Shown here: positions 20,663-64,000 of the stretch, piece by piece
Layout: each line of letters opens with the position of its first letter
Numbering within the stretch: the stretch's first letter is position 1
Origin: Spirochaetia bacterium
GTDB lineage: Bacteria; Spirochaetota; Spirochaetia; CADAEX01
Direction of reading: 5' to 3'
Assembly (NCBI GenBank): GCA_045606105.1
Contig: JAZURI010000011.1
Coordinates: 70,836-134,835, forward strand
DNA: 64,000 nucleotides
The notes under the pieces: model-generated
What the model saw: only the letters and a program-made list of their open reading frames with translations
What the model was told of the DNA's origin: nothing
Database searches by the model: none
Position numbers and translations under genes: made by a program

Positions 20663-21485
20663 AGGGTGAAAGGATTTCTCCCCTGTCTCCCGGCTTCACC
20701 CCTACCGATTCGCAGGCAGCCTGAACATTTTCCGCACCGAAATGACGGAGATTGTTGAGAATAGTCTTTCTTCTTGAAGAAAAGATATCACGGATTATTC
20801 CCAGAACCTCTTTCCTGTTTTCCATGGTAAAGAAATCATCCCTGGGGCTGAAGGTCACTATTCCGGAAACCACTTCAGGTACGGGATAGAAGCATCCCCC
20901 CTTGATATCCCCTTTATAAGCCACATCGCAGGAGAGCTGGCACAGAACCGAAAATGAGGAATAATCACTGCATCCCGGCTTTGCCGCAATACGCTGTCCC
21001 GCCTCCTTCTGGACGGTAAAAACCATCTCCGGAGCCAGACAATCCCCTTCAATCAGGGAGCTGATCATTGCAGAAGCGCTGTTATAGGGAAGATTACCGA
21101 AAATGACATCCGGCTTTCCGTATTTTTCAAAAATACCTTTCCATGTCTTCACCATATCCCCTTCCGCAATCTCGAAACCGGGATTGGCACCGAACTGCTC
21201 TCCGAGAAATGAAATATAGCCCCTGTCGATCTCAAAAACCACAAGACGACCTGTATCCCCCACCCTTTTCAGGGCCATGGAGGTCATGGAGCCCAGACCG
21301 CCGCCGATTTCCCAGACATAGCTTCCCTCTTTTATGTTGACGAAGCTGAGAACCTTTTCACGGGCTGAAGGAGAAATCATGAAGTTCTGACCGAATTTCT
21401 TGGTGGGGCTGAGTCCCCTTTCCTTAAGGAGGGCACATATTTCACTTTTTGAATCGTAGTTCAACGGTATCTGCATGGAAAACAT
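20604..21485 (-). CDS. rsmA: 16S rRNA (adenine1518/1519-N6)-dimethyltransferase
   Basis: KsgA signature KKFGQNFM and SAM motif EIGGGLGSMT. Confidence 0.85.
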   Translation of the reverse strand: MFSMQIPLNYDSKSEICALLKERGLSPTKKFGQNFMISPSAREKVLSFVNIKEGSYVWEIGGGLGSMTSMALKRVGDTGRLVVFEIDRGYISFLGEQFGANPGFEIAEGDMVKTWKGIFEKYGKPDVIFGNLPYNSASAMISSLIEGDCLAPEMVFTVQKEAGQRIAAKPGCSDYSSFSVLCQLSCDVAYKGDIKGGCFYPVPEVVSGIVTFSPRDDFFTMENRKEVLGIIRDIFSSRRKTILNNLRHFGAENVQAACESVGVKPGDRGEILSPSKIVELASALISSCRRCTG

Positions 21486-25446: not shown

Positions 25447-26496
25447 TTAGTCTGTTACTGTAAAATCCATATTAATTGACATTGCGATGTTTCCGCTGGT
25501 TACGCCGCATGCGATGTTTGCAAACTGTGCTGCAGAAGGTGTCCAGCTGTAAGTTGCTTCATTGCCCGGCATAGGAGCTCCGTTGATGAACCACTGGTAA
25601 GTTGCACCGTCGGCAGGCACTGCTGTACAGGTGAATGTTACAGTCTGATTCTTGGCAATCTGTGTTACTGCCTCATCAGAATTATTTTTGGCTGCAAGTG
25701 TAAGAGTCAGCACTGCAAGACCGTTTACAGAAAGGGAAGGAGTCTGGAACAGACCGTAATCAAGGGTACCTGTAATGGCTGCTGTCTCTCCGCCGTCCAC
25801 TGTTACATAAAGAGGTACTGTTCCTACAGGGTTGTCGCCGTTCTTATATTCAAGATTTACCCAATACATGCCGGCTGCGAGGTTATCAATTGTCTCCTTA
25901 TCAAAATCTGCCTTTTCGGCTGTGCTTGATCCGTTAGGCACTACAGTGATAGTTTCGATTGCATTGGCTGTGTCTTCCACGGAACCGTAGGAAATTACAA
26001 GCTTGTCTCCGGAAGCTACTACTCTTTTTGCATCCACATCCACTGTGATTGTACCTTTCATTGTATCGTCAAATGCAGGTGATACATCAAATACAACCGG
26101 TGTGCCTGAGGCATTTACATAAGCTGTTTCGGTTCCTGTATAGAGCACGGCACCTTTTGCTGACCTTACCTGAATATCGAATGTCCACTGTCCCTGCTGG
26201 AAAAGACCGATGGTTCCGGTGGTTCCTCCAAATTCAGTAACCTGAGTCCATGCATCTCTCTTTCCGTAGGCATTTTCGCTGCCGGCCCACTGAGGTGTTG
26301 CCTTGTAATATATAGAGCTTACTGAACCGCGTCCTCCTGTAACGGATACGGCATAGGATGGGCCGTAGGAAGATATGTCAAATGATACACTTACAAGAGA
26401 CGGACCTGATGCAAGATCGTCAGAGCCGCCGTTCTGACAGGAACATACGAATATCATAGCCAGACAAAGCATTAATATTGTAAATTTTCTTTTCAT
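25447..26496 (-). CDS. lipoprotein, paralog A (C-terminal Ig-like domain)
   Basis: Signal peptide and lipobox MKRKFTILMLCLAMIFVCSCQNGGSDD; about 40% identical by eye to the 26778-27821 product, including the FQQGQWTFD and VTFTCTA-PA…TYQW-ING blocks. Confidence 0.6.
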   Translation of the reverse strand: MKRKFTILMLCLAMIFVCSCQNGGSDDLASGPSLVSVSFDISSYGPSYAVSVTGGRGSVSSIYYKATPQWAGSENAYGKRDAWTQVTEFGGTTGTIGLFQQGQWTFDIQVRSAKGAVLYTGTETAYVNASGTPVVFDVSPAFDDTMKGTITVDVDAKRVVASGDKLVISYGSVEDTANAIETITVVPNGSSTAEKADFDKETIDNLAAGMYWVNLEYKNGDNPVGTVPLYVTVDGGETAAITGTLDYGLFQTPSLSVNGLAVLTLTLAAKNNSDEAVTQIAKNQTVTFTCTAVPADGATYQWFINGAPMPGNEATYSWTPSAAQFANIACGVTSGNIAMSINMDFTVTD

Positions 26497-26561
26497 GTCT
26501 GTTCTCCGTCAAAATTGGAAATACAAAAAAATGTTATTCCTAACAAAATAATAAAAGAAAA

Positions 26562-26634
26562 TCGGGCAAGGCGGACTCGAACCGCCGGTCTCAACGTCCC
26601 GAACGTTGCGCGCTACCAACTGCGCTATTGCCCG
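26562..26634 (-). tRNA. tRNA-Pro (anticodon CGG)
   Basis: Manually folded reverse complement: acceptor CGGGCAA/TTGCCCG with the bacterial tRNA-Pro C1:G72 pair and A73; D-stem GCGC/GCGC; anticodon stem CAACG/CGTTG with loop TTCGGGA; 5-nt variable loop; T-arm GGCGG-TTCGAGT-CCGCC. CCA is not encoded. Confidence 0.8.
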
Positions 26635-26732
26635 AAAGAGTTACGGACTCCCCGCCGTCCAGGATAAATGATACGCTGGCTCCGCCTACGGGAGTTATAC
26701 CGTTCTTGTACATCTGCCGCCGTGACCGAAGA

Positions 26733-26766
26733 CAAAAAACCTGTCCCGCCGGGGACAGGTTTTACT
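26733..26766. terminator. bidirectional intrinsic terminator
   Basis: AAAAAA-CCTGTCCC-GCCG-GGGACAGG-TTTTACT: 8-bp GC-rich stem with flanking A and T runs, downstream of the lipoprotein gene ending at 26778. Confidence 0.6.
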
Positions 26767-26777
26767 ATATCATATCA

Positions 26778-27821
26778 TTAAGGCAATTCTGTTACCTGAT
26801 ATGTAATTGACTTGCTGACAACAATGTTTCCGCGGGTTGCTGTACAAGTAATGCTTGCATTCTGATATGCAGTCGGAGACCATTCATATGATGGTACTGT
26901 TGTTGCACTGCCTACAGCATCTCCGTTTATATACCACTGGTATGTTGTTTCGCCGGCAGGAGTTGCAGTACAGGTGAAAGTAACCACTCCGGCGTCGACA
27001 CTGCTCTCTATCTCGGAAAGGGTAAAGGATGATGAAATTCCGTTGATTGTAATGAGTGCTGTCTGGAATTCTCCTTCTACAAGGTTTCCGGAAATAGTTG
27101 CTGTCTGACCGGCATCAAGTGTAAAGTTGACGATTGCGCTACCTACTTCAGCTGTATTGTTCAGATATGTAAGCTTAACCCAGTAGTTGCCTGCTGCAAG
27201 GCCTTCCACATCATCAATCTCAAATGAAAGGCTTGGGCTGTCTGCTGCACATGTTTTTGTCTGATTTGTTTCTAGGTCAGCATCCTGTCCCACAAGTCCG
27301 TACTCCATAAGTACCTTGTTGAGATTCAAGGTCGGATTTATCTTGGCTGCTGTGATTGTATCAAATGCGATTGTACCTGTACCTACACCAGCTCCGCCGC
27401 GTGTTACAGTTACTTCTACAGGTGTATTTGCAGCATTGATGTATACTGTGGTTGCTGCTCCTGTATAAACAACGTTTGCACCACTTTTTACCTGAACATC
27501 GAATGTCCACTGTCCCTGCTGGAAGTATCCGAGATCCTTTTCTGCTGCATAATCTTCAATTTCGACAAATCCAGCTGTCTTTCCGAATACATTTTCGTTT
27601 GTCCAATTAGGAGTTGCCTTGTACCAGTAAGTAAGTTCGCCTGAAACACTTCCGCCGCTTACGGAAATGGTTCTCTGAGGTCCGTCTGCAGGAAGTTCTA
27701 CAGAAAGGTTTACTTTATATAAAGCGCCGCCTGCAATATCGTCGGAACCGGTTCCGTTCTGACATGAGCATACAAAAATCATTGCCATACAAAGCAAAAG
27801 TACGATTAAATTTTTTTTCAT
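26778..27821 (-). CDS. lipoprotein, paralog B (C-terminal Ig-like domain)
   Basis: Signal peptide MKKNLIVLLLCMAMIFVCSCQNGTGSDD is nearly identical to paralog A; shares the VTFTCTATPAGETTYQWYING C-terminal domain. Confidence 0.6.
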   Translation of the reverse strand: MKKNLIVLLLCMAMIFVCSCQNGTGSDDIAGGALYKVNLSVELPADGPQRTISVSGGSVSGELTYWYKATPNWTNENVFGKTAGFVEIEDYAAEKDLGYFQQGQWTFDVQVKSGANVVYTGAATTVYINAANTPVEVTVTRGGAGVGTGTIAFDTITAAKINPTLNLNKVLMEYGLVGQDADLETNQTKTCAADSPSLSFEIDDVEGLAAGNYWVKLTYLNNTAEVGSAIVNFTLDAGQTATISGNLVEGEFQTALITINGISSSFTLSEIESSVDAGVVTFTCTATPAGETTYQWYINGDAVGSATTVPSYEWSPTAYQNASITCTATRGNIVVSKSITYQVTELP

Positions 27822-41223: not shown

Positions 41224-42054
41224 ATGAGTGAATGTAATCATGACTGCTCAAGCTGCGGCAGCAACTGCAGTGAAAGAACAGAACCTCAGAGCTTCCTGGA
41301 GAAGCCGCATGAGCTTTCAAAAATCAAAAAAGTAATTGCAGTAGTCAGCGGAAAGGGAGGTGTAGGAAAATCCCTGGTAACCTCTATCCTTGCCGTTATG
41401 ATGAACAACAAAGGATATAAGACAGCAATTCTTGATGCCGATATCACAGGTCCTTCAATTCCAAAGGCTTTCGGCGTATGCGACAGACCTAAGCAGGACG
41501 GCGACGGATTCCTCCCTGTAAAGAGCAGAACCGGCGTAAATATCATGTCACTGAACCTTCTTCTGGAAAACGAAAGCGATCCTGTAATCTGGAGAGGTCC
41601 GGTTATCGCAGGTGCGGTAAAGCAGTTCTGGACAGATGTTATCTGGGGAGATGTGGACTATATGTTCATCGACATGCCTCCCGGAACAGGCGATGTTGCC
41701 CTGACAGTATTCCAGAGCATTCCTATCGACGGTATCGTTATCGTCACATCACCTCAGGAGCTGGTTTCCATGATTGTTGAGAAGGCTGTAAACATGGCAA
41801 AGACCATGGATATTCCTATCCTCGGCATGGTGGAAAACATGAGCTATGTAAAGTGTCCTGACTGCAACAAGGAAATCAGGATTTTCGGCGAGAGTCATCT
41901 TGAAGAGACTGCAAAGAAGTACGGAATCGAGGTTACAGACAAGCTTCCTATGGCACCGGTAATTGCTACCGCATGTGACAGAGGTATGGCAGAATTCCTC
42001 GAAGGAAGATTCCTCCCTGACCACATCAAGATGCTTGAAGAGCTTATCAAATAA
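41224..42054 (+). CDS. Mrp/ApbC-family Fe-S cluster carrier ATPase
   Basis: N-terminal CxxC cluster, deviant Walker A SGKGGVGKS, conserved CPxC (VKCPDC). Confidence 0.85.
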   Translation: MSECNHDCSSCGSNCSERTEPQSFLEKPHELSKIKKVIAVVSGKGGVGKSLVTSILAVMMNNKGYKTAILDADITGPSIPKAFGVCDRPKQDGDGFLPVKSRTGVNIMSLNLLLENESDPVIWRGPVIAGAVKQFWTDVIWGDVDYMFIDMPPGTGDVALTVFQSIPIDGIVIVTSPQELVSMIVEKAVNMAKTMDIPILGMVENMSYVKCPDCNKEIRIFGESHLEETAKKYGIEVTDKLPMAPVIATACDRGMAEFLEGRFLPDHIKMLEELIK

Positions 42055-42514
42055 GTTTCTTTTTTAAGGACTGCGCTACTGTTTCCAGAGCTCTCGGATC
42101 TGTTTTTCCGGCACTGAACAGAAGGCGCAGTATCTCTTTTCTAATATCCTCAGGATAAAGAGCCAGAACCTGACGGCTTTTTTCCTTTCCCGCATGCTTC
42201 AGAACCACAGCCGCAATTACGGCAGACTCCCCTTCAAGAGCTGCAAAAAGCCTGTCGGCATCGGTATTTTCCAGAAAGTCCATTGAATTCCTTTCCTTTT
42301 CGAAAGGGGTGTTATCCAATACGTTATGCCAGGTGAATCTCCTGTTTTTTGCAGAAAAGCTTTTGAGCTCCCTTAGTACTGAGTTATCTCCCTTGGGAGC
42401 AGCAGCACTTTTCAGCTTTTCCACCTCTTCGGAATCCAGATATGAAACTATTTCCCTGCATCTCTCCTCCCCCAGAAGGAACAGCAGTCCGGCAGCCTTT
42501 TCTTTTTTATCCAT
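42047..42514 (-). CDS. hypothetical protein (FliG/MgtE-N-like helical domain)
   Basis: 155 aa, all-helical composition; LFLLGEE…LDSEEVEKL resembles the FliG/MgtE N-terminal fold, with low confidence. Confidence 0.4.
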   Translation of the reverse strand: MDKKEKAAGLLFLLGEERCREIVSYLDSEEVEKLKSAAAPKGDNSVLRELKSFSAKNRRFTWHNVLDNTPFEKERNSMDFLENTDADRLFAALEGESAVIAAVVLKHAGKEKSRQVLALYPEDIRKEILRLLFSAGKTDPRALETVAQSLKKKLI

Positions 42515-42515
42515 A

Positions 42516-42575
42516 ATCAGATTATATTATACCCTTTTTTCCTCGTCCACCGTTTTTATAAAAAAGGGAATTGCC
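42516..42575. repeat. 60-bp direct repeat, copy 1 (orphan 3' end of the MFS gene)
   Basis: Identical over 60 bp to 43949-44008; read on the minus strand it encodes …AIPFFIKTVDEEKRV* without an upstream gene body. Confidence 0.9.
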
Positions 42576-42706
42576 AGGAATGAAAGATAATCTTGTAAAT
42601 AAATACTATCTATTAGGTAGTTATAAAGGTATTTAAATTTCTTCCAAAAAAAATTTTTTTATGATACTATCAAAAATACCTAAAACTACCAATGGAAAAA
42701 ATATAA

Positions 42707-43945
42707 ATGAATATTTTTATAAAAACAATAATAAAGAAAATTTGGAAATTCATTTTTAGAATCTGGAGATTTTTAAACAAAAAAGCAGAAGGACTAAATA
42801 GGAGAATTGATAAACCTAAAAGAATACTTCCCGAAACTGTTTTTATCGATAAAACATACAAAAATATTATTTCATCCCAAGGATTTTTATATAGCGGTTC
42901 TTCTACTTTGATAGGACTGTTTCAAGAATTTAATAATACAACAACATTAGGCATGCCTGATTATGTATATTCAGGAAAAAAAGTAAAGAAAGGAGCTGAA
43001 GTTCGTTTTTTTGCCGACTCAAATGTTTTTAACTTTATTGAAGCTTTTTACTCAGATAATGAAGTTTACCAAGATGCAGTTATAAAAAAATTTATTCGCT
43101 TTATAAACGTTGCATATTATAATAAAGGATTATACTCCTGGGATAAAAATCCTCTTGTTTATAATGAATTTTTTCTTAAGAATGCTTTAGATTTTCTTTT
43201 TGCCACATTGGAACTTGATGATAAATCAAAAATTCTGGCTGAAAAAAATCATCTTCCTCTCACCTGGAATTCAGCGGATGAAAAATATAAAGGCTATTCA
43301 TTTATGTTTGGAGAGGGCATTCATCAATATATATTTTATAAATATAAAAAAATAGAACCTAAGGTTTTTGAATTTCATGTAAAAAATTTCTTTTCTAATT
43401 TTTTTAATTCTGTACAAAGTAAAGATTATTTAATATGTGACCAATTACTAAACACTGTTAAACTTGATAAATTAGCAAAAATAAACCAATACCTAGATAC
43501 CCCTATTAAAACAATTAGTGTTATAAGGGATCCAAGAGATCAATATATTTCAGCTTTCAGACATAATGATACTTTTTATTTAAGTGATACATTAGACGGT
43601 TATGTAAACTTTTATTTATCAATGGTTCAACCTGTAATAAACAGTAACAACCCACATAGATTGGTACTCAGATTTGAAGATATTGTACTTAAATATGATG
43701 AATCAGTTCAAAAAATAATAGATTTTGTCGGCATAGATAAATCATGTCATATTGCCCCGAAATCAGTTTTCAATCCGGCATTATCGGTAGTTAATATAGG
43801 TGGATATAAAAAATTCCACAATCAGGATTTTATGAAACAAATTGAAGAGCGGTTACCTAACTTCTGTTATTATCCTGAAAAAGAAAATCTATCCGAAGAA
43901 GCATGGAAAATGCTTAAGGAAAATAATTTTAAAGAGCTGGAATAA
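42707..43945 (+). CDS. sulfotransferase-family protein (putative), in a strongly AT-rich insert
   Basis: 3'-phosphate-binding-like motif VIRDPRDQYISAF and a 5'-PSB-like YSGSSTL; the composition (Lys/Asn/Phe/Tyr-rich) matches the low G+C of the insert. Confidence 0.5.
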   Translation: MNIFIKTIIKKIWKFIFRIWRFLNKKAEGLNRRIDKPKRILPETVFIDKTYKNIISSQGFLYSGSSTLIGLFQEFNNTTTLGMPDYVYSGKKVKKGAEVRFFADSNVFNFIEAFYSDNEVYQDAVIKKFIRFINVAYYNKGLYSWDKNPLVYNEFFLKNALDFLFATLELDDKSKILAEKNHLPLTWNSADEKYKGYSFMFGEGIHQYIFYKYKKIEPKVFEFHVKNFFSNFFNSVQSKDYLICDQLLNTVKLDKLAKINQYLDTPIKTISVIRDPRDQYISAFRHNDTFYLSDTLDGYVNFYLSMVQPVINSNNPHRLVLRFEDIVLKYDESVQKIIDFVGIDKSCHIAPKSVFNPALSVVNIGGYKKFHNQDFMKQIEERLPNFCYYPEKENLSEEAWKMLKENNFKELE

Positions 43946-43948
43946 ATA

Positions 43949-44008
43949 ATTATACCCTTTTTTCCTCGTCCACCGTTTTTATAAAAAAGGGAATTGCCAG
44001 GAATGAAA
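43949..44008. repeat. 60-bp direct repeat, copy 2 (native 3' end of the MFS gene)
   Basis: Identical to 42516-42575; covers the stop codon and last 19 codons of the 43950-45170 gene. Confidence 0.9.
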
Positions 44009-45170
44009 AACCGCCTGTTACGGCAGGAATAAGCCAGTACAGAGTGTAGGATCCGCCGGTTCCGTCCATGACTGCGCCGCCCAGCATATAGCCCAGCAGA
44101 GATGCAGGGGCCGATATGGCCAGAGAATAGAACTGATGGAAGGCAGCCCTGTTTTCGGGCCGGCTGAAGGAGTCCAGATGGATGAAGGTACAGGAAAGGA
44201 ACAGAGCTGAAACCAGACCGTGACACAGGATTCCCGGTATTACGGCCCCCGGTCCGGGAGCAGCTGCAAAGATAAGATATTTGATCATGCAGAAAAAAGC
44301 TCCGGCCCCCATGACCTTTCCCACTCCGAATCGGTTCAGGAAATGTCCCATGAAAACCATGACCGCCACCTCGGTTATCATTCCCAGAGAAATGACCAGG
44401 GCTATGTTTCCCTCCGGAAGTCCCATATCCTTAAGAAAAGGGGCAGCTCCCATAAAATAATAGTGATCCTGCATTGTCATGAAAATACAGATTACCATGA
44501 ATCCCAGGAACTGAAGCTTCACTCCCCGCTCCATACTGCAGAGACTGCGGAAAAAATTCTCCCCTTTCACCCTTCCCTGCTGGCTTCTGTCCTGCCTGAA
44601 ATGACAAAGTCCCCTGAAAATGATCAGTGCACTGAGAAAAGCGGCCCCTCCGGCCACATGGAAAAGTCCTCCGAAGTTTCTTTCAAAGGGGAGCGCCACT
44701 GCAGGATTCATCCAGATACAGGAAAAAAATACTGCAGCTCCTATCCAGCCCAGAGTTCCCCAGACACGGAATTTTCCGTAGTCGTTTCTTCCCCTGCCGG
44801 AAAGATTTCTGAAGGTCAGTGCATTTATAAGGGCAAAATCGGGTTTGTGAAAAATATTGAATATGAAAAAAAGGAAAAATACCGGAGCAAAGGAGCGGAA
44901 GAAGGGAATAAGTGACAGAACCAGGAAAACTGCCAGCTCGTTCATCATCAGCAGCCTTTCCACCCTGATTACCCGGTCAGCAAGAAAAATCAGTATCAGC
45001 GGCGAAAGGAATGCAGCTATGGTTTCAGTGGTCAGTATCAGACCGGTCTGAATGCCCCCGAAGCCCAGATAATCCCGGCAGTAAAGACTGGTAAGGGAAA
45101 GCAATGTCCCCTTGATTACAAATTCGAGAAAAAAAAGTGAGGATAGAACAGCTGCAGTTCTTTTATTCAT
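43950..45170 (-). CDS. MFS transporter
   Basis: 12 predicted TM helices; MFS loop motif region (FLADRVIR). Confidence 0.7.
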   Translation of the reverse strand: MNKRTAAVLSSLFFLEFVIKGTLLSLTSLYCRDYLGFGGIQTGLILTTETIAAFLSPLILIFLADRVIRVERLLMMNELAVFLVLSLIPFFRSFAPVFFLFFIFNIFHKPDFALINALTFRNLSGRGRNDYGKFRVWGTLGWIGAAVFFSCIWMNPAVALPFERNFGGLFHVAGGAAFLSALIIFRGLCHFRQDRSQQGRVKGENFFRSLCSMERGVKLQFLGFMVICIFMTMQDHYYFMGAAPFLKDMGLPEGNIALVISLGMITEVAVMVFMGHFLNRFGVGKVMGAGAFFCMIKYLIFAAAPGPGAVIPGILCHGLVSALFLSCTFIHLDSFSRPENRAAFHQFYSLAISAPASLLGYMLGGAVMDGTGGSYTLYWLIPAVTGGFSFLAIPFFIKTVDEEKRV

Positions 45171-45172
45171 CC

Positions 45173-47368
45173 CTATTCCCTGAACTTATCAGGCAGGTGG
45201 AGAATTTCCCTTGGCTTGCTTCCGTTGGCCGGGCCTATTATCCCCCTGGCCTCCATCTCTTCTATAAGGCGTGCCGCCCTGTTATAGCCTATGGAGAGCC
45301 GGCGCTGGAGATATGATGCAGAGGCTTTTCCCGTGGAGGCCACAACACCCAGGGCCCTGTCGAAAAGGGAATCCCCTTCTGAGCCGGTATAGCAGTCACT
45401 GTCACCCAGATCGTCATCATCCATGAATATCTCATCATCGATATATTCCGGTTCACCCATTTTCCTGACCTCGGAAACAAGTCTTTCAACCTCTTCGTCG
45501 GAAAGGAAGGCACTCTGGATTCTTGTTATGTTCGGATCCCATGAGGATTTGAAAAGCATGTCACCCTTGCCCAGCAGCATTTCGGCACCGCCGCTGTCCA
45601 GAATAACCCTGGAATCGGTATAGCTGGCTACCATGAAGGCAATTCTCGACGGAATATTGGCCTTGATGACACCGGTAATGACATCAACGGAAGGTCTCTG
45701 GGTTGCCAGCACCAGATGGATACCTACTGCCCTGGCCTTGGCTGTAAGGCGTGAAACCGCAGGCTCAAGCTCCTTTCCGGAGGTAAGCATGAGATCGGCA
45801 AACTCATCTATGATAACCAGGATATAAGGAAGCGGTTCCAATGCTATCCTGTTGGCCTTGATTTTCTTGTTGAAAGCTTCAATATTGCGGACATCGATGG
45901 TTTCAAGCAGCGAATAACGCCTTTCCATTTCGGCAATACAGTAATTCAGGGCCTGAAGTGCCTTTTTCGGATCGGTGATAACCGGTGTAAGCAGATGCGG
46001 TACACCGTTGTACATCTTCAGCTCAACCACCTTAGGGTCGATAAGTATCATCTTCACATCATCGGGATGCTTCTTGTAGAGAATGGTGGAAATCAGGGCA
46101 TTTACACAGACCGATTTTCCTGAGCCTGTGGCACCGGCTATAAGAATATGAGGTGTCCTGGCCAGATCGATAACCTGGGCATCTCCCTCAATATCCCTTC
46201 CCAGAATGAACGGAACCGCCGCCTTGTCAAGGTCGGGATTCTTCCGGCTTATAAGCTCCTTGAAGCCTACTATGCTCCTTTTCATGTTAGGGATTTCCAC
46301 CCCGACAGCCCTTTTTCCCGGTATCGGAGCCACTATTCTTACACTTCTGGCTGCCATGTTGAGGGCAATGTTGTCGGCCAATCCCGCAATCTTGGAAACA
46401 TTGACTCCCGATGCAGGAAGAATCTCGAACATGGTGATTACAGGCCCTTTCCTGATGCCTGTGATCTTGGCCTCTATCTTGAATTCACGGAGAGTGCCCA
46501 GAAGGATTTCCGCATCCTCACGGGTTTCGTCGGTTATATCAAAGGCCTGGTCGTTGCTTCTGTCCTCCAGCACCTCGTCCACCGGAATCTCATATTTTGC
46601 CCTTCTTTTACGGTGAACCATGGGTATCGGTTTATCATCGGACGGAATTTCGATAACAATGTCATCCTCTTCAGGCTCCGGAACAGGCCGGGCTTCAGGC
46701 AGCTGCTCAGGCTCTTCACGGTATCCGATGCCGGAATTGAATTCACTGAAACTGATATCAACCGGCTCATCATCAGCCTGCCCCTCTGGAACAGGTACCT
46801 TTTCAAAGCCCATCTTTATATAGGATTCGGGCGGAAGCTCAGGCTCAGGTGCTGCTTCGGTACTCTCTGCTTCCATATCGGAGAAAATGTCATTTTCGCG
46901 GAGCTTCTCCTCCCACTCATCAAGTTCCTCTTCGTATTTCTCATCTTCCTCTTCACGGGATGAACCGAAGCTGAAGGAGAAACGGTCCCTGAAAAAGAGA
47001 ACCAGGATTCCGTATATTTCTGCTATAAAAAAGAATGCAATCAGGATTGAGTAAACTACCTTCAGGGCATCATCGCCGGCTATTACACGGCAGAACCATG
47101 CGGCTGTGACAAACGGAATGACAGAGGAAAGCTGTATATATATAACTTTCCGGCTGAAGCCATCGAAAAGAAGGTATATTCCGCTGAACAGAAAGTAGAG
47201 GGGAACATAGAAGGAGGCCTGAAGAAAACGGTCGTAGAGAAAGGTTCCCACTGTAGTAAGGCTCAATACCCGGTTCCCTCCGGCTGCAGCTGCAATGGCA
47301 AGAGTCGTAAAAACTGACAGAAACAACAGCAAGGCAGAAGTTATGATTGTTTTTTTAGTTTTGTTCAA
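45173..47368 (-). CDS. ftsK: DNA translocase FtsK
   Basis: N-terminal TM helices, acidic/proline-rich linker, motor domain with Walker A GATGSGKS and C-terminal gamma (winged-helix) domain. Confidence 0.9.
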   Translation of the reverse strand: MNKTKKTIITSALLLFLSVFTTLAIAAAAGGNRVLSLTTVGTFLYDRFLQASFYVPLYFLFSGIYLLFDGFSRKVIYIQLSSVIPFVTAAWFCRVIAGDDALKVVYSILIAFFFIAEIYGILVLFFRDRFSFSFGSSREEEDEKYEEELDEWEEKLRENDIFSDMEAESTEAAPEPELPPESYIKMGFEKVPVPEGQADDEPVDISFSEFNSGIGYREEPEQLPEARPVPEPEEDDIVIEIPSDDKPIPMVHRKRRAKYEIPVDEVLEDRSNDQAFDITDETREDAEILLGTLREFKIEAKITGIRKGPVITMFEILPASGVNVSKIAGLADNIALNMAARSVRIVAPIPGKRAVGVEIPNMKRSIVGFKELISRKNPDLDKAAVPFILGRDIEGDAQVIDLARTPHILIAGATGSGKSVCVNALISTILYKKHPDDVKMILIDPKVVELKMYNGVPHLLTPVITDPKKALQALNYCIAEMERRYSLLETIDVRNIEAFNKKIKANRIALEPLPYILVIIDEFADLMLTSGKELEPAVSRLTAKARAVGIHLVLATQRPSVDVITGVIKANIPSRIAFMVASYTDSRVILDSGGAEMLLGKGDMLFKSSWDPNITRIQSAFLSDEEVERLVSEVRKMGEPEYIDDEIFMDDDDLGDSDCYTGSEGDSLFDRALGVVASTGKASASYLQRRLSIGYNRAARLIEEMEARGIIGPANGSKPREILHLPDKFRE

Positions 47369-59120: not shown

Positions 59121-59597
59121 TTATTCTGCCAGTTTTTTAAGGCTCTCTCCCGAAAAGCGGTAGGTGGTCCAGTCACTCATCTGCTCGGCTCCCAGGGAAA
59201 GGTAGAAATCGATGCTGGGCTTGTTCCAGTCAAGACACCACCACTCAAATCTTCCGCAGCCGCGCTCCAGTGCAATGCGGGCCAGTTCCCTGAGAATTCC
59301 CTTTCCGTGGCCGCGGCCTCTGTATTCAGGCAGGACATAAAGATCCTCCAGATAGATGCCGGCTTTTCCGAGAAATGTGGAGAAATTATGGAAAAACAGG
59401 GCAAAACCCACTTCCTTGCCATCCTCCATGGAGAAAATGACCTCAGCTATATGCTTTTCGAAAAGCCACTGACGGAGAATTTCCTTGTCGGCCACCACCA
59501 GATCGGACATTTTTTCGTACTCTGCCAGCTGCCGGATGAAGCTGAGAATCAGATCTGTATCTTTTTCCGTTGCAAAACGGTATTGGATTGTGTTCAT
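59121..59597 (-). CDS. GNAT family N-acetyltransferase
   Basis: Acetyl-CoA motif YRGRGHGKGIL; 158 aa. Confidence 0.8.
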   Translation of the reverse strand: MNTIQYRFATEKDTDLILSFIRQLAEYEKMSDLVVADKEILRQWLFEKHIAEVIFSMEDGKEVGFALFFHNFSTFLGKAGIYLEDLYVLPEYRGRGHGKGILRELARIALERGCGRFEWWCLDWNKPSIDFYLSLGAEQMSDWTTYRFSGESLKKLAE

Positions 59598-59676
59598 GTG
59601 GATATTATAGCACGGAATGGGAGGAATGGGGAAATTATTATTGTCAAATAGTAAAGACAGATGATAAAATTATAAT

Positions 59677-60399
59677 ATGTTAAATGATTTCTTTAATTGG
59701 TTGACCCTGAATACAAATCTTGCAAATTCATCAAAAGACCACTATAAAAATGGATTAAAATCCATATCAAAGGAAATGTTATCCAGAGATATAATTGATA
59801 AACCGTTGGAAGATATGTCTGTTCAAGAATTGGAAATCGCATATTTTTGCATCTTTCAAGACACTGTTTTTCTCGAAAAAAACAATCGGGGAAATAACAT
59901 GTACAGTAATTCATTAAAACATTATATGGCATTCGTAAAAGATGTTGCAAAAAATGATATAGAAGATAATTTTGTTAAATCAATCAAAAAAGATAATACT
60001 ATTTCAGAAACAGAAAAAGAAACCATTATACTGGCCAGATTGGGACAAGGAAAATTCAGAAAGCTGATATTAGAAAAATATAATTCCAGGTGTGTAATAT
60101 CAGGTATTTCCGACACCAGGCTTTTGATAGCCGGACACATTAAGCCTTGGGCAGTTTGCGATAACAATAACAGAATTGATCCCGAAAACGGTCTATTGTT
60201 CAATAACTTATATGACAAAATGTTTGATCTTGGAATAATGACATTTTCCGAAAAAGGGAAGATTCTTATTTCAAAAACATTCAAAGAAAAAAATATAAAG
60301 CTTATCGGCCTGGATACAGAACGTATTTATGACCTGCAATTGACCGATAAAATGAAACAAAATCTTGAATATCACAGAGATATTATATTTTTGAAGTAG
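59677..60399 (+). CDS. HNH endonuclease (COG3440-like predicted restriction endonuclease)
   Basis: C-terminal HNH-type motif CVISGISDTRLLIAGHIKPWAVCDNNNRIDPENGLLFNNLYDKMFDLG. Confidence 0.65.
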   Translation: MLNDFFNWLTLNTNLANSSKDHYKNGLKSISKEMLSRDIIDKPLEDMSVQELEIAYFCIFQDTVFLEKNNRGNNMYSNSLKHYMAFVKDVAKNDIEDNFVKSIKKDNTISETEKETIILARLGQGKFRKLILEKYNSRCVISGISDTRLLIAGHIKPWAVCDNNNRIDPENGLLFNNLYDKMFDLGIMTFSEKGKILISKTFKEKNIKLIGLDTERIYDLQLTDKMKQNLEYHRDIIFLK

Positions 60400-60400
60400 T

Positions 60401-61495
60401 TTATTTTAAGAATCTTATTTGCAGACATAATTTTAAATAATATTTTCCGTTTTCTTTAAAAATATTACCAAAATCATGCCTTGAAGTACTTGGTGTATCA
60501 AATTTTGTATTTTTAACCAAATAATCTTCAAATTCATTTCTGTTAAATAAGTGATAACAAAGAACTTCTCCATCTTCCCTGACTATAATATATCCGCCTG
60601 TTGCATCTGCTCTTCCGGTCCAAGGAGTCGAAGGCAACATACCTAAAGCACATTCGGAAATAAACTTTTTGAATTTATACTCATAAAAAGGCTGCCCGCT
60701 CTCAAGAGGGAATTTGCAAGGATTTTTTTTGGAAATATTTTTGAGCGATTCAGAAATTTTTTTAACACGGTGGGAATAATATTCCATAAGCATATAAGCA
60801 CAAATTTTAGGTAAGCTTCCGTCAAGCATTAGAAGATTGTTTTCAAAAATATCGTTATCAACTTTTATAAAGTTTAAACTACAGTCCTTTGATTTCAAAT
60901 AATCAAATCTGTCTTTAAATTTTTTAGAACAGGTGTTAAAACCATTTAACACTCCATCATCTATTTTTCCGACAACTTCATATAAAAAATTAGTTGTCTT
61001 ACCTGCATTGATAAGAGTGGAAGCTCCTCCTAATCTTGATTTAATACTGAAACCCTGGACATTTTCATATCCTGTATTAATATCGTGAATTCTTATAAAG
61101 ATATCAGCTTTATCTGTAGGTTTGGCTTTAATTGTGTCAACGGATATTTTTTGAAGAAATGCGTTGGTCGCTTCGGATGAAAAAGTTGTTTTTTTAGAGT
61201 TAATTATTTCTTTATATAAATTATTTGCACATCTTGTAAATTCCTCAGATTTTATAGATGCAAGTTCTGTTTTTTTGTCTACATTGAAAACTGTGATTAT
61301 TTTTTTATTTTGATTAATACGGAATTCAAGTTTTCCTATTGATTCATTTCTAACAATATTAATTATATTGTAAAAAGTACCATCTAGTTTATTTAAATCT
61401 TCATCTGCAGCGTACAATTTTCCTAATTCAAGTAAACGTAACAGCACATAAATTTCACTCCATTCACCTTTGTTATAGCCGGAAAGTTTTGGCAT
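60401..61495 (-). CDS. candidate type II restriction endonuclease (hypothetical protein downstream of the MTase)
   Basis: 364 aa, AT-rich, translationally coupled (23-nt overlap) to the C5-MTase gene; no recognisable catalytic motif confirmed by eye. Confidence 0.4.
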   Translation of the reverse strand: MPKLSGYNKGEWSEIYVLLRLLELGKLYAADEDLNKLDGTFYNIINIVRNESIGKLEFRINQNKKIITVFNVDKKTELASIKSEEFTRCANNLYKEIINSKKTTFSSEATNAFLQKISVDTIKAKPTDKADIFIRIHDINTGYENVQGFSIKSRLGGASTLINAGKTTNFLYEVVGKIDDGVLNGFNTCSKKFKDRFDYLKSKDCSLNFIKVDNDIFENNLLMLDGSLPKICAYMLMEYYSHRVKKISESLKNISKKNPCKFPLESGQPFYEYKFKKFISECALGMLPSTPWTGRADATGGYIIVREDGEVLCYHLFNRNEFEDYLVKNTKFDTPSTSRHDFGNIFKENGKYYLKLCLQIRFLK

Positions 61496-62492
61496 TATCT
61501 AGAACCTCCTTAATTCTTTCCGCAATTGCAGTAATTACACTAACGGTGACACTGTTTCCAAATTGTTTGTACAGGTGAGTATCTGCAAGAGGAAGAACAA
61601 AACTGTCAGGAAACCCCTGCAGTCTAGCCCATTCCCTCGGAGTCATTTTTCTGATTCCCTCTTTATTAATATTACCTTTTATATGAGTTACGGGAACAAG
61701 ATCCTTCTGTCTTTTGTCTATAACAAGATTTCTCTCTCTTCCCATACCACCGCAAACAATAGCCCCTGCTATATCACTCCAATCACGAATTTCAAATCCG
61801 AATCCATTACCTTTTGATTCGTGTCTTGCTTTGTGTCTGCGTAATGTTTCTACATACACTTCACTTAGATAATACTTCGCAGAAACAGCTTTTGCTTCTT
61901 TAATATCCCATAAACATTTAGAATTATCTGTTTTTTCAGGAAAAATAAAATTTTCCGGGGCAATATCAGCTCTGAATGCGACAATATAAATTCGTTCTCT
62001 GTTTTGAGGTACACCGAAATTTTTACTGTTTAGTACTTTATAAAAAACCTTATATCCCAAAGATTCAAAAGTATCATGTATAATTTTGAAAGTTCTTCCT
62101 TTATCATGAATGTATAAACCTTTAACATTTTCACAAAAAATTACCTTTGGCTTGTGGTAATCACAAATTCTTGCAACATCAAGAAAAAGATTCCCGCGAC
62201 ACATACCTTTGTAATTGTCTTCAAACCCCATACGTTGTCCTGCAAGACTGAATGCCTGACAAGGAAAACCGGCAAGACAAATATCAAATTCAGGAATATC
62301 TTTTTCTTCTATTTTGGTAATATCTCCCGCAATTTCAAATTCATCATTAAAGTTTGCTTTGTATGTTTTTTTTGCATTCTCATCCCATTCGCTGACAAAG
62401 ACCGTACTTATTTCATCCTTAAACGCACCGTCAAATCCCAAGCGAATTCCACCGATTCCCGCAAAAAGATCAATTGATTTATACTGATTCAT
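61473..62492 (-). CDS. DNA (cytosine-5)-methyltransferase
   Basis: Motif I DLFAGIGG, motif IV GFPCQAFS, motif VI ENVKGL, motif VIII QNRERIY, motif X FGNSV. Confidence 0.9.
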   Translation of the reverse strand: MNQYKSIDLFAGIGGIRLGFDGAFKDEISTVFVSEWDENAKKTYKANFNDEFEIAGDITKIEEKDIPEFDICLAGFPCQAFSLAGQRMGFEDNYKGMCRGNLFLDVARICDYHKPKVIFCENVKGLYIHDKGRTFKIIHDTFESLGYKVFYKVLNSKNFGVPQNRERIYIVAFRADIAPENFIFPEKTDNSKCLWDIKEAKAVSAKYYLSEVYVETLRRHKARHESKGNGFGFEIRDWSDIAGAIVCGGMGRERNLVIDKRQKDLVPVTHIKGNINKEGIRKMTPREWARLQGFPDSFVLPLADTHLYKQFGNSVTVSVITAIAERIKEVLDNAKTFRL

Positions 62493-62949
62493 TTGCTTTT
62501 ACCGCCATTTCAACTTTATCCGCACAAATGCTGATATTGTTTTTTATTTCTTTCCCCCAGAATCTAATAACCTGCCAACCTTCAGATTCCAGTTTTGATG
62601 TTACTTCAAAATCTCTTTTAATATTTCTTTCTATTTTAGGAATCCAAAAATCCTGATTTGATTTAAAATCATTTTTTCTGTTATCCCAATCATATCCATG
62701 CCAAAACTCACTATCGACAAAAACTGCTATTTTTTTTCTTAAAAAAACAATATCAGGCTTACCATATATTTTTCCGACATTTTTTCTATATCTAAGTCCC
62801 CTATTCCAGAGTTCTTTTCTTAATTTTAACTCTATTTCGGAATCTTTATTTTTCACCTGTTTCATATTAAAGTGAATTTGTTCTTTTGTTTTAGTCATTC
62901 TTTTTATCCGGAAATAACTTTCCAATTTAAAATTTATCATGAATTTCAT
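62479..62949 (-). CDS. vsr: very-short-patch-repair endonuclease
   Basis: Vsr signature (IVFLRKKIAVFVDSEFWHGY…WIPKIERNIKRD…GWQVIRFW); 14-nt overlap with the MTase gene. Confidence 0.85.
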   Translation of the reverse strand: MKFMINFKLESYFRIKRMTKTKEQIHFNMKQVKNKDSEIELKLRKELWNRGLRYRKNVGKIYGKPDIVFLRKKIAVFVDSEFWHGYDWDNRKNDFKSNQDFWIPKIERNIKRDFEVTSKLESEGWQVIRFWGKEIKNNISICADKVEMAVKANESV

Positions 62950-63024
62950 GAATTATAAACCACTTTCTATATCTTTTTTACCACATCCCATATCTCATGC
63001 AATGACACACTTCTAAAAATAAAT

Positions 63025-63059
63025 AAAAAAGACAGCCGAAGCTGTCCTTTTACCAATAT
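63025..63059 (-). terminator. intrinsic terminator hairpin, copy A
   Basis: On the minus strand GACAGCTTCGGCTGTC followed by TTTTTT; 35 bp identical to copy B. Confidence 0.5.
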
Positions 63060-63207
63060 CATTACAGACCTATGTTAAAATTTTCCCAATTTTTCAACAT
63101 AGATATTTTTTTCAAATTTTTGTCCACGTTATTTTTTCATTGACAAATTTTACCTTTTTCTGTCCATGTTATTCTAAGAAAAATCCTACTCCGTACACAC
63201 CGGCAAA

Positions 63208-63242
63208 AAAAAAGACAGCCGAAGCTGTCCTTTTACCAATAT
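63208..63242 (-). terminator. intrinsic terminator hairpin, copy B (downstream of the CoiA-like gene)
   Basis: Identical 35-bp element AAAAAAGACAGCCGAAGCTGTCCTTTTACCAATAT; on the minus strand a hairpin plus T-run immediately after the stop at 63254. Confidence 0.55.
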
Positions 63243-63253
63243 TTCACTTCCCA

Positions 63254-64000
63254 TCACCCTTTTCTTCTGCGGCGGGCGGGTTTTCTTTTTGCAGGTTTCT
63301 TGATTGCAGGGTTGTTTCTGCAGGATGGGCACACTTTTTCAAAGCTGTCCACTGTTATGCCGAACACGGAGATTCCTCCGGTATATCTGCTTCTGAAGCT
63401 TCTGCCGCAAAGGGCACATTCGGTGTCGGTTTCTCCCTCTTCCTTTTCCATGAGTCTGCAGCTGCTGTCCAGGCAGTAATCCACGCTGTACGGTTTTTCC
63501 AGTTTCTCTTCCACCCGGTCCAGATCCTTCAGATCCCAGAGCTTTATCTGTATGCAGGTTTCCTTGCTGTGTGGTCTGAAAAACAGTGCCTGCTCCTCCG
63601 GGGCATCGGTACAGATAATCTCTATTACCCCTATCCTGTTCCTGTTTATATCAAACAGTTCCACGGTTTCTGTCAGTTCCTTCACCGACGCCACCCGGTT
63701 CATCAGGTTCTTAGGGCCCCATTTGGCGCCGCATTCACGGCATTCCCAGCTTACTCCCAGCTCTCCCTTTTCCTTTATCCTGCTGTTCAGAAGGGCAGTA
63801 AGGCGTTTCTTGAACTCGCTGTGAAGAAAGGTTTCGCTTCCGCCGGCACAGCCGGTATCCTTCTTGTGGGCAAAATGCTTCTGTCTTTCGGGGCCTTCCC
63901 TGAGTATGAATTCCTGTCCGCATTCTACGCAACGGTAGTTTTTCCCCTTAAGGGCTTCTGAGATGGATACGATTTTTCCCTCGGAATTGAGGGCGTGCTG
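63254..64000 (-). CDS. CoiA-like zinc-ribbon protein (5' end outside the window)
   Basis: The reading frame stays open upstream of the ORF-track Met to the window edge; upstream part encodes YRCVECGQEFILREGPERQKHFAH (the C-x2-C…HFAH pattern of the CoiA family). Additional CxxC pairs follow, and the C-terminus is a basic tail. Confidence 0.5.
   Translation of the reverse strand, partial: QHALNSEGKIVSISEALKGKNYRCVECGQEFILREGPERQKHFAHKKDTGCAGGSETFLHSEFKKRLTALLNSRIKEKGELGVSWECRECGAKWGPKNLMNRVASVKELTETVELFDINRNRIGVIEIICTDAPEEQALFFRPHSKETCIQIKLWDLKDLDRVEEKLEKPYSVDYCLDSSCRLMEKEEGETDTECALCGRSFRSRYTGGISVFGITVDSFEKVCPSCRNNPAIKKPAKRKPARRRRKG

Follow-up and report, generated by a model that had tools for sequence, protein, structure and literature searches.

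How does a single gene of foreign base composition come to lie in a bacterial chromosome between two perfect copies of the 3' end of a neighbouring gene, with no mobility gene beside it? The question is raised by a locus in a Spirochaetia bacterium, considered here within a 64,000-nucleotide (64-kb) stretch of contig JAZURI010000011.1 that is referred to throughout as the window. An initial annotation of the window had described a 60-bp direct repeat on either side of an AT-rich, sulfotransferase-like gene and had taken the arrangement for the attL/attR scar of site-specific integration. The structure of the locus, the nature of the inserted gene, the distribution of the insert among strains, and the possible routes by which it arrived are considered in turn.

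The two copies of the repeat lie at 42526-42585 (copy 1) and 43949-44008 (copy 2) and agree at 60/60 positions; the initial annotation gave the identity and the position of copy 2 correctly, but its copy 1 (42516-42575) has to be moved 10 bp to the right. The 60-mer has two matches in the window, even with three mismatches allowed, and none in 100 shuffles; within the window, then, it is not a dispersed repeat. Copy 2 is the functional 3' end of the target gene, which encodes an MFS transporter of 406 amino acids (Nuc_H_symport/MFS_1_like; 43950-45170, minus strand) and is intact despite the duplication. This copy runs from 1 nt past the stop codon through the stop codon itself and the 18 codons before it, and takes in 2 nt of a further MFS codon; its earlier description as the stop codon and last 19 codons was therefore approximately right. 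Copy 1 is an orphan duplicate of the same 3' end and, as had been described, has no gene attached; it lies 11 nt upstream of the ATG (at 42514) of the downstream neighbour, which encodes a FliG_N/FliG_M-like protein of 155 amino acids (42047-42514, minus strand). The edges of the 60-bp repeat are arbitrary with respect to the target, one falling in the middle of a codon and the other 1 nt past the MFS stop codon. The end of the insert (GCTGGAATAAATA) is similar to the end of the repeat (GCCAGGAATGAAA), a resemblance judged compatible with chance in AT-rich DNA.

Sequences resembling transcription signals are found at both copies of the repeat. A promoter-like site (TGGACG-17-TATAAT; 42521-42549, minus strand), which is a match to the σ70 consensus only (10/12), has its -35 hexamer within copy 1 and its -10 hexamer across the repeat edge, and stops 6 nt short of the FliG-like ATG; the sister species shows partial conservation of this region. 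A terminator-like hairpin (44011-44026, minus strand), likewise only a consensus match, lies within the MFS coding region, and its T-run extends into the outer edge of copy 2. No Rfam family was found in 41500-45500.

Between the two copies are 1,363 bp of insert-specific DNA (42586-43948, plus strand) with a G+C content of 0.266, as compared to about 48% for the host and 0.46-0.49 for the neighbouring genes. The insert contains a single ORF (42707-43945, plus strand; 412 amino acids), the one with an RDPRD motif that the initial annotation had pointed out along with the low G+C of the surrounding DNA. Codon usage gives the same picture, with a G+C content of 0.274 and a GC3 of 0.19 for the ORF against a GC3 of 0.44-0.54 in the neighbouring genes; by this contrast in GC and GC3 with the host (0.27 and 0.19 vs 0.49 and 0.53), the insert is foreign DNA. 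The cargo gene is complete, and beyond it the insert holds only a 121-bp 5' non-coding region (42586-42706, plus strand; GC 0.19) and 3 bp between the stop codon and copy 2. The 5' region is where the native promoter and RBS of the cargo gene presumably lie; a σ70 scan of 42586-42706 called no site. The initial annotation had noted the lack of an integrase or other mobility gene at the locus, and indeed neither the insert nor the rest of the 64-kb window encodes an integrase, a transposase, or any other mobility function. The insert also has no visible integrase-gene remnants, no tRNA, and no terminal inverted repeats (best terminal match, 15/30), and no attC-like RYYYAAC...GTTRRRY pair was seen on reading the sequence. 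Phage and plasmid collections gave no match to the repeat-plus-insert, and the 60-mer is not present in viral contigs. The window does contain a gene for the competence channel ComEC.

The cargo protein has the fold of a sulfotransferase, as had been proposed from its RDPRD motif. The Pfam model Sulfotransfer_1 matches only residues 261-344 of the 412-residue protein, at 29.9 bits (cut-off 22), and Sulfotransfer_3 stays under its cut-off (21.6 vs 27); a PDB profile search matched sulfotransferases alone. With the AlphaFold model (pLDDT 88.8, pTM 0.82) as the query, the best 50 Foldseek matches in the PDB are without exception sulfotransferases, if the sulfotransferase-like retinol dehydratase is counted among them; TPST2 is matched with a target-normalised TM-score of 0.57. 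All 21 family sequences compared have R274-D-P-R-D278, and at least 90% of them have S282; this stretch aligns with the RDPRD/RNPKD..S of solved enzymes. The 5'-phosphosulfate-binding loop of sulfotransferases, (K/R)-S/T-G-T/S-T in its canonical form, carries a catalytic Lys/Arg. In the cargo protein the location of this loop, between strand 53-59 and helix 66-72, is occupied by Y-S-G-S-S-T, and an aromatic residue takes the Lys/Arg position before SG across the family. The protein shares the fold and the 3'-phosphate-binding motif (R274..S282) with PAPS-dependent sulfotransferases (structures of TPST2, CurM ST, and Stf1), but differs from them in lacking the usual Lys/Arg of the loop and in having sequence similarity that is confined to about 85 residues.

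The cargo family is small; 21 clusters were found, and they occur in glycan, teichoic-like, and phosphonate loci. Homologs of the cargo gene have 53% identity or less and are native to AT-rich genomes, in surface-glycan loci where the GC of the gene is at or somewhat under that of its flanks. No donor closer than the best homolog (53% identity) was found, the best in JGI metagenomes having 40%. An exact look-up of the 412-residue product gave no match, although a cluster table includes an NCBI copy of it. The cargo family was not found on mobile elements, and flanking repeats of at least 18 bp were present at 0/25 homolog loci; these loci without repeats, together with the GC near that of the flanks, speak against the family being itself a repeat-flanked cassette. 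The cargo protein most likely modifies a surface glycan, a putative activity that would give rise to strain-level variation of the cell surface.

The comparison with related genomes that the initial annotation had proposed as a check uncovered the empty site. In 13 metagenome contigs from 13 other samples, with 99-99.9% identity in the flanks, the MFS gene is followed by 12 bp and the FliG-like gene, whose start is 12 bp past the MFS stop codon, and the 60-mer is present as a single copy; the site is also empty in the sister species (2 contigs), and the insert-specific DNA is missing from all of these. Each copy of the repeat at the filled locus has exactly one flank in common with the empty allele, which for copy 1 is the left flank. 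The insert was assembled independently in another sample as a unitig (L005; SRR32918232) of 99.65% identity, with 5 SNPs, that is made up of 30 nt of the repeat, the insert, and 30 nt of the repeat; a k=31 graph is alike for integrated and circular forms, so L005 is compatible with either. SNP density in this second filled allele is like that of the flanks. One further contig, L001, ends exactly at the repeat edge, which is expected where two continuations exist. With 13 empty and at least two filled alleles, some strains carry the insert and most do not, and the filled allele is a minority variant. Together these alleles support a true insertion of foreign DNA with target duplication that has left the MFS gene intact. 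Variation within the 60-mer is slight (one SNP in 2 of 14 contigs), too little to indicate whether both copies originated in situ.

An integrase-free class of insertion that the initial annotation left unconsidered, the insertion with long target duplication (Nobusato et al., 2000, Gene 259:99; Furuta, Abe, and Kobayashi, 2010, PMC2853133), is the class that this locus matches, apart from the type of cargo. The published criteria ask for an insert of <20 kb that is free of mobile-element genes, a duplication of >30 bp, and a relative with an empty site (PMC2853133); the locus has an insert of 1,363 bp with no transposase or integrase, a duplication of 60 bp that is limited to its two copies within the window even at three mismatches, and an empty site with a single repeat copy. 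Published cases include some with 46-bp repeats over gene 3' ends and some with low-GC inserts, and come mostly from naturally competent species (PMC2853133); the present locus has in common with them the low-GC insert and DNA-uptake machinery in the host and, with the 46-bp cases of H. influenzae, a repeat that lies over a gene 3' end. It differs in its cargo, which is a sulfotransferase-fold gene instead of an RM gene. RM-gene content is, however, a criterion of the published screen, which looked at RM genes only, rather than of the mechanism, and the pattern has been stated to cover "RM systems and other DNAs" (PMC3457768). The host is also different, spirochaetes being absent from the published lists, as is the population-level evidence, with 13 empty and at least two filled alleles. 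The published hypothesis attributes the insertions to double-strand breaks made by a restriction enzyme that is carried as cargo, an idea that is inapplicable here because the cargo includes no restriction enzyme.

A one-off, recombinase-independent capture of a foreign fragment, with the repeat as a by-product of repair, is given about an even chance of being the correct account, the joining step being the part that we infer. Foreign DNA would have been taken up by the cell, possibly with the aid of the ComEC channel encoded in the window, and a fragment of 1,363 bp, derived from a bacterium with AT-rich DNA, would have been inserted once into the chromosome of a spirochaete lineage at the junction of the MFS and FliG-like genes, with duplication of 60 bp of the target. 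Capture would have required no dedicated recombinase; instead, the fragment may have been joined illegitimately to two chromosomal breakpoints 60 bp apart, arising from a staggered break that was filled in or from offset breaks on two sister duplexes behind a replication fork. The repeat would then be what repair left behind and not a recognition site. The survival of the insertion is proposed to follow from the duplication leaving both neighbours whole: the MFS gene would retain its last 18-19 codons and stop codon, and the FliG-like gene its native 60-bp upstream region, including the promoter-like -35 element. Descent and ordinary homologous exchange of flanks could have maintained the filled allele as a minority variant. 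Several observations weigh against capture of this kind: a tidy insert, consisting of a whole gene with 3 bp after its stop codon, would also suit a dedicated cassette system; the cargo lacks the nuclease of the published break hypothesis; and the search for a recombinase covered only 64 kb of the genome.

Site-specific integration, the explanation favoured by the initial annotation, is regarded as possible but doubtful. On this account the MFS gene would carry an att site, the 60-mer, at its 3' end, and a 1,423-bp circle (insert plus one repeat) would have integrated there with an integrase supplied in trans. The circle would represent a minimal cassette without an integrase or, alternatively, what remains, CIME-like, of a larger island that has lost its integrase. 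Direct repeats that restore a gene 3' end are the classic signature of such events, the empty site has a single copy of the repeat, the cargo is compactly arranged, 3 nt separating its stop codon from the repeat, and L005 is equally compatible with a circle. The 60-mer also includes an AT-rich imperfect dyad (CCCTTT-TTTATAA-AAACGG) arranged like the core site of a tyrosine recombinase, which counts in favour of integration and against one-off capture, although such dyads are estimated to occur by chance about 0.6 times per 60 bp. The attL/attR-like repeats with a single attB-like copy do not discriminate, since they are common to insertions with long target duplication, and an attL/attR scar is not established by the remaining evidence. 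Neither an integrase nor a visible remnant of one is found in the insert, and the 64-kb window encodes none; the 16 strain-level contigs and 2 sister-species contigs have no other element at the site; the phage, plasmid, and viral searches gave no matches; and members of the cargo family were found on no mobile elements and lack flanking repeats. The repeat itself folds no better than shuffles (z -0.8 to -1.1), with no significant secondary structure and no attC-like or hairpin fold.

CIMEs and decayed islands at gene 3' ends, such as those of the ICESt1/ICESt3 family at fda in Streptococcus thermophilus, provide the closest comparison for such a remnant. The locus shares with them integrase-less DNA, direct repeats that duplicate a gene 3' end, an intact target, and an empty site in relatives. 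It differs in that neither a related autonomous element nor an integrase is known to use the site and no integrase remnants are visible, in its 60-bp repeat, which is longer than typical core identities, and in an insert reduced to one gene with 3 bp of 3' flank; flanking repeats and one copy at the empty site are both present, but the insert and the window encode no cognate integrase, and the site has no other element in the 18 contigs. The more specific proposal, which makes the 60-mer a genuine site of recombination and the 1,423 bp (one repeat and one gene with its promoter) a minimal, integrase-less single-gene cassette that a recombinase encoded elsewhere shuttles as a circle, is unlikely. 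As a second choice the initial annotation had suggested a cassette moved by an unknown mechanism, and this wording comes close to where the evidence ends.

A route driven by homology is decidedly unlikely, whether by Campbell-type ("ends-in") RecA recombination of a molecule in which insert and 60-mer were already joined or by tandem duplication and subsequent homologous replacement, with a diverged relative as the source, the latter being the alternative pathway drawn in PMC3457768. Given a unit of insert plus repeat, a single crossover within the 60 bp would give the exact structure that is found; the occurrence of the filled allele in at least two samples with flank-like SNP density is consistent with homologous exchange, and ComEC is encoded in the window. 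Such a route leaves the first joining of insert to repeat unexplained, however, and RecA would have a short substrate in 60 bp. The gene was not found native at this locus in any relative, the sister species being empty, and the closest homolog, at 53% identity, is in unrelated contexts.

It is very improbable that the assembler threaded a separate, extrachromosomal AT-rich molecule through a common 60-mer, although the source contig of the window may be from a metagenome-assembled genome and the k=31 graph would be identical for the two forms. Such a molecule would need the exact 60-mer of the species at both ends of the insert in two independent samples, a 1.4-kb molecule with no replication gene is an implausible replicon, and the stop of L001 at the repeat edge fits the existence of two continuations. 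Some spirochaetes (Treponema) have chromosomal integrons, and the insert resembles an integron cassette in being a compact, single-gene unit of about 1.4 kb with a promoter-proximal ORF, able in principle to take circular form. Movement by a conventional transposase, as a transposon or MITE, or by IntI, as an integron cassette, is nonetheless effectively refuted by the missing defining features: there are no terminal inverted repeats (best match 15/30) and no transposase or IntI in the window; 60 bp is far above the target duplications of transposons, which are typically <10 bp and 19-26 bp for IS1630 (PMC2853133); and no attI or attC-like pair is seen, the fold of the repeat is weak, the repeat is host coding sequence, and integron recombination produces no 60-bp target duplication.

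Other loci in the window were considered as further instances. The repeat pair at 26166-26202 and 27488-27524 (36/37 identical) was rejected, as it encodes a conserved QQGQWTFD[IV]QV segment common to two paralogous lipoprotein genes on either side of a tRNA-Pro. Two other AT-rich islands, with a Fic gene (16225-17526) and an HNH/HpaII/MTase/Vsr cluster (59677-62949), are not flanked by direct repeats of at least 14 bp. The RM site formed by the latter cluster is an allelic-replacement hotspot, and the Fic gene is also present in L075, the other strain contig that reaches the Fic site, so that the comparison offers no empty allele there.

Insertion with long target duplication has been recognised from genome comparisons since 2000 with its mechanism still to be demonstrated, and it has so far been discussed almost entirely as a property of RM systems, for which a favoured idea is that a nuclease of the cargo makes the break. 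The present locus is a clean case with a cargo that cannot cut DNA, in a phylum that is off the published lists, and on these grounds it is argued that the pathway is independent of the cargo. Because both alleles, filled and empty, occur side by side in the natural populations sampled, read-level tests are feasible on public data. Were the cassette interpretation true instead, the locus would be an example of gene cassettes that move independently of integrons, inserting at the 3' end of a housekeeping transporter gene and leaving both neighbours restored. For the organism, the locus illustrates that a single glycan-tailoring gene can join the genome with neither neighbour damaged, and in this uncultured, gut-type spirochaete such an addition could alter the surface of certain strains.

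A 60-bp sequence (ATTATACCCTTTTTTCCTCGTCCACCGTTTTTATAAAAAAGGGAATTGCCAGGAATGAAA) occurs as a perfect direct repeat at 42526-42585 (copy 1) and 43949-44008 (copy 2), the copies lying 1,423 bp apart from start to start. Copy 2, whose coordinates in the initial annotation were correct, is indeed the genuine 3′ end of an MFS transporter gene (43950-45170, minus strand; 406 aa; Nuc_H_symport and MFS_1_like), comprising the final 18 codons with 2 nt ahead of them, the stop codon, and 1 nt beyond it. Copy 1, which had been placed 10 bp too far left (42516-42575), is the gene-less orphan it was taken for; 11 nt separate it from the start codon (ATG at 42514) of the downstream gene for a 155-aa FliG_N/FliG_M-like protein (42047-42514, minus strand). 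The 60-mer has only these two copies in the 64 kb with up to 3 mismatches allowed, which speaks against a dispersed repeat, and none in 100 dinucleotide-preserving shuffles of the window. The insert between the copies (42586-43948; 1,363 bp) contains one real gene, the cargo gene (42707-43945, plus strand; 412 aa), whose stop codon falls 3 nt short of copy 2. Its low G+C, first judged by eye, is borne out: 0.266 overall, 0.19 in the non-coding 5′ part (121 bp), and 0.274 in the ORF (GC3 0.19), against 0.46-0.49 (GC3 0.44-0.54) in the adjoining genes.

Short contigs from many public runs, retrieved by exact matches to the MFS and FliG-like proteins, were compared with the window by BLAST, direct inspection, and alignment. 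The empty site that had been predicted is present in 13 contigs from 13 samples (L002-L004, L008, L009, L011-L017, and L067), in which the MFS gene is followed by one 60-mer and then, 12 bp past the MFS stop, by the FliG-like gene; the flanks are 99-99.9% identical to the window. In alignment, copy 1 shares its flank with the empty contigs on the FliG side only and copy 2 on the MFS side only. A sister species (Spirochaetia MAG JAZNLX010000108; MFS 67% identical) has the order FtsK, MFS, FliG-like with the insert absent, as does a second contig of its lineage; thus, the ancestral state is empty. The filled allele is a minority variant, but it is not peculiar to the window's assembly: a Logan unitig (L005, from SRR32918232; 1,423 bp) corresponds to 42556-43978 and consists of 30 nt of repeat, the entire insert, and 30 nt of repeat, the shape expected for a k=31 unitig with the repeat bounding both sides. 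The 5 SNPs that separate it from the window (3 nonsynonymous, 2 synonymous) all fall in the ORF and leave it intact; this density (5 in 1,363 bp) is about the same as in the flanks. Another contig, L001 (SRR24145993), breaks off precisely where copy 2 meets the insert, the behavior expected of a contig at a point with two continuations. The locus is a true, strain-polymorphic insertion of a single foreign fragment between two perfect target copies.

The description of the cargo gene as sulfotransferase-like with an RDPRD motif holds. The protein matches Pfam Sulfotransfer_1 (29.9 bits; cut-off 22) over residues 261-344 only, and a profile of 21 family members finds only sulfotransferases in the PDB, through the same region. 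The AlphaFold model built from the family alignment is confident (pLDDT 88.8, pTM 0.82), and its top Foldseek matches are all PAPS-dependent sulfotransferases, including TPST2, the CurM ST, SULTs, and Stf1. R274-D-P-R-D278 is invariant in the family and S282 nearly so; the R274 motif and S282 correspond to the 3′-phosphate-binding Arg and Ser. A Y-S-G-S-S-T loop between the first strand and first helix has the position of the 5′-phosphosulfate loop, and this putative loop (residues 59-66) reads [FY]-[YW]-[ST]-G-S-S across the whole family (alignment A1). PAPS sulfotransferases typically carry Lys or Arg in the 5′-phosphosulfate loop, which the loop of the cargo family lacks; the donor substrate of the cargo enzyme may not be PAPS.

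The family is small (21 clusters among 5.8 billion proteins), and the best relative of the cargo protein, a 99% copy aside, is 53% identical. The contigs of the relatives are AT-rich (GC mostly 0.28-0.41, full range 0.25-0.51), the genes themselves equal their flanks in GC or fall somewhat lower, and the relatives sit among surface-glycan genes. Neighbors of one homolog (in contig L006) are glycosyltransferases, IspD, an epimerase, PEP mutase-cytidylyltransferase, a phosphonopyruvate decarboxylase-like protein, and Fe-ADH; those of others include CDP-glycerol glycerophosphotransferase, DegT aminotransferase, GT2-LicD, pyruvyl transferase, and an ABC exporter. Several homologs directly adjoin phosphonate-biosynthesis or LicD/glycerophosphotransferase genes. 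Given the AT-rich contigs and surface-glycan neighborhoods of its relatives, the cargo gene most likely encodes a glycan-tailoring enzyme acquired from an AT-rich donor. The cargo protein has an N-terminal helix motif (F/Y-R/K-I-W-x-x-L) in common with its homologs, so the gene came in whole.

Thanks to the 60-bp duplication, the MFS gene has its full reading frame and the FliG-like gene retains the 60 bp that natively precede it. A promoter-like TGGACG-17-TATAAT (42549-42521, minus strand; a consensus match only) has its -35 hexamer inside copy 1, and only 6 nt lie between the end of its -10 hexamer and the FliG-like ATG; alignment shows much of this region to be conserved in the sister species. 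Since the -10 is so close to the ATG and no Shine-Dalgarno sequence is evident before it (42514-42549, minus strand), the FliG-like protein might come from a leaderless transcript. Transcription of the cargo gene runs towards the MFS gene end, with the FliG-like gene behind it, and so interrupts the original read-through from MFS to FliG-like gene; the preserved promoter-like element may be of consequence. The 155-aa product, less than half the length of true FliG, scores 43.6 bits against TIGR00207 (cut-off 226.7); it is therefore a protein with FliG domains rather than the motor switch protein. A terminator-like hairpin (CTGCCGTAACAGGCGG, then a T-run; 44011-44026, minus strand) is located within the MFS coding sequence, and its T-run coincides with the outer boundary of copy 2; such a structure-prone site may have helped to set the breakpoint.

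Neither the insert nor the rest of the 64-kb window yielded an integrase, recombinase, or transposase, in agreement with the initial annotation. The insert lacks terminal inverted repeats (best 15/30 matches), and no attC-type boxes were seen on reading the sequence; a transposon or integron origin was rejected, the defining features of both classes being missing. The locus has no Rfam match and no nearby tRNA gene, the only one in the window, tRNA-Pro(CGG) (26561-26635), being far off. Flanking this tRNA gene are paralogous genes for two lipoproteins of 349 and 347 aa (25447-27821) with similar signal peptides and a common QQGQWTFD[IV]QV segment; a 37-nt near-perfect repeat pair, considered as an insertion scar, proved to be a conserved segment of these genes. 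As ssDNA, the 60-bp repeat shows no significant structure (z -0.8 to -1.1), repeat plus insert match nothing in phage and plasmid collections, and both the 60-mer and the cargo family are absent from IMG/VR viral contigs. Flanking repeats of at least 18 bp were found at none of 25 loci with cargo homologs, and no contig examined has another occupant at the 60-mer site. The initial reading of the repeats as a scar of site-specific integration keeps the duplicated MFS 3′ end and the empty site but lacks an integrase, another occupant, and any phage or plasmid match; it is possible but unsupported.

Our preferred reading, at roughly even chances, is that imported DNA was captured in a single event, independently of any recombinase, at two breakpoints separated by 60 bp. 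The breakpoints could stem from a staggered break with subsequent fill-in or from offset breaks on two sister duplexes bridged by the imported fragment; the 60-bp duplication would be a by-product, and selection would have kept an insertion that happens to spare both neighbors. Capture is favored because the repeat boundaries are arbitrary (mid-codon and 1 nt past the stop), the site is not reused, and the cargo family is non-mobile. A less probable course is that an integrase whose gene lies elsewhere inserted a 1,423-bp circle at a genuine att site, leaving a minimal cassette or a remnant like a cis-mobilizable element (CIME; integrase-less DNA bounded by att-type repeats). Such integration would suit the neat limits of the cargo and the AT-rich dyad found within the repeat (CCCTTT-TTTATAA-AAACGG), although by our estimate about 0.6 such dyads are expected by chance per 60 bp. 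Purely homology-driven routes, which leave the first meeting of insert and repeat unexplained, are improbable, and an assembly artefact is scarcely credible when two independent assemblies show both junctions. Identity between the copies cannot discriminate between mechanisms, because the 60-mer is nearly invariant among strains.

Other AT-rich islands in the window have no flanking direct repeats comparable to the 60-mer (at least 14 bp searched). A single-gene island (16225-17526; GC 0.33), with an MFS gene on one side and a phosphoglycerate-mutase-like gene on the other, encodes a 433-aa Fic/DOC and HTH_11 protein, and the gene is present (98.4% identity) in L075, the sole other-strain contig reaching it. 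A defense island (59600-63250; GC about 0.30) contains an HNH_2 nuclease (59677-60399, plus strand), an HpaII-type restriction enzyme (60401-61495, minus strand), a putative C5 cytosine methyltransferase identified by sequence motifs (61473-62492, minus strand), and Vsr (62479-62949, minus strand). Its site beside a GNAT gene (59121-59597) is hypervariable between strains, other contigs having there a directly adjacent Vsr with different partners, a NUDIX gene, a 544-aa ORF, or the HNH_2 gene again; lacking flanking repeats, the island is ascribed to allelic replacement, a mode other than that of the 60-bp insertion. At its edge, a 38-nt terminator-like hairpin (AAAAAAGACAGCCGAAGCTGTCCTTTTACCAATAT) occurs twice (63022-63059 and 63205-63242; 37/38 identical, 183 bp apart) around 145 bp of AT-rich DNA, the second copy just past the stop of a host gene at 63254-63703 (minus strand), for which an exact-protein look-up gave no match. 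The pair could be a remnant of another insertion with target duplication.

The first description of insertions with long target duplication is attributed to work in H. pylori (Nobusato et al., 2000). Furuta, Abe and Kobayashi (PMC2853133) systematised the class as inserts <20 kb that carry no further mobile-element genes, with a duplication >30 bp (a threshold chosen to keep out typical site-specific repeats) and a related genome in which the site is empty, the repeat being unique in the genome. In their H. influenzae cases 46-bp repeats overlap gene 3′ ends and one insert is low-GC; hosts are mostly naturally competent, the screen was limited to restriction-modification (RM) genes, and double-strand breakage was suggested as possibly involved. 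The present locus has every defining property, repeat uniqueness having been checked within the window, and its host has a DNA-uptake gene; unlike the published cases, its cargo is not RM. The uptake gene, encoding a ComEC homolog (21461-22807; Pfam Competence, 147.6 bits), suggests that the organism may take up DNA, a possible route for naked foreign DNA to the chromosome. The locus is thus not a new kind of element and is better filed as a non-RM, spirochaetal member of this known class. Public data contain both the filled and the empty allele, which makes direct read-level tests possible, and the locus is a clean natural case showing that insertions with long target duplication do not require a nuclease system as cargo.
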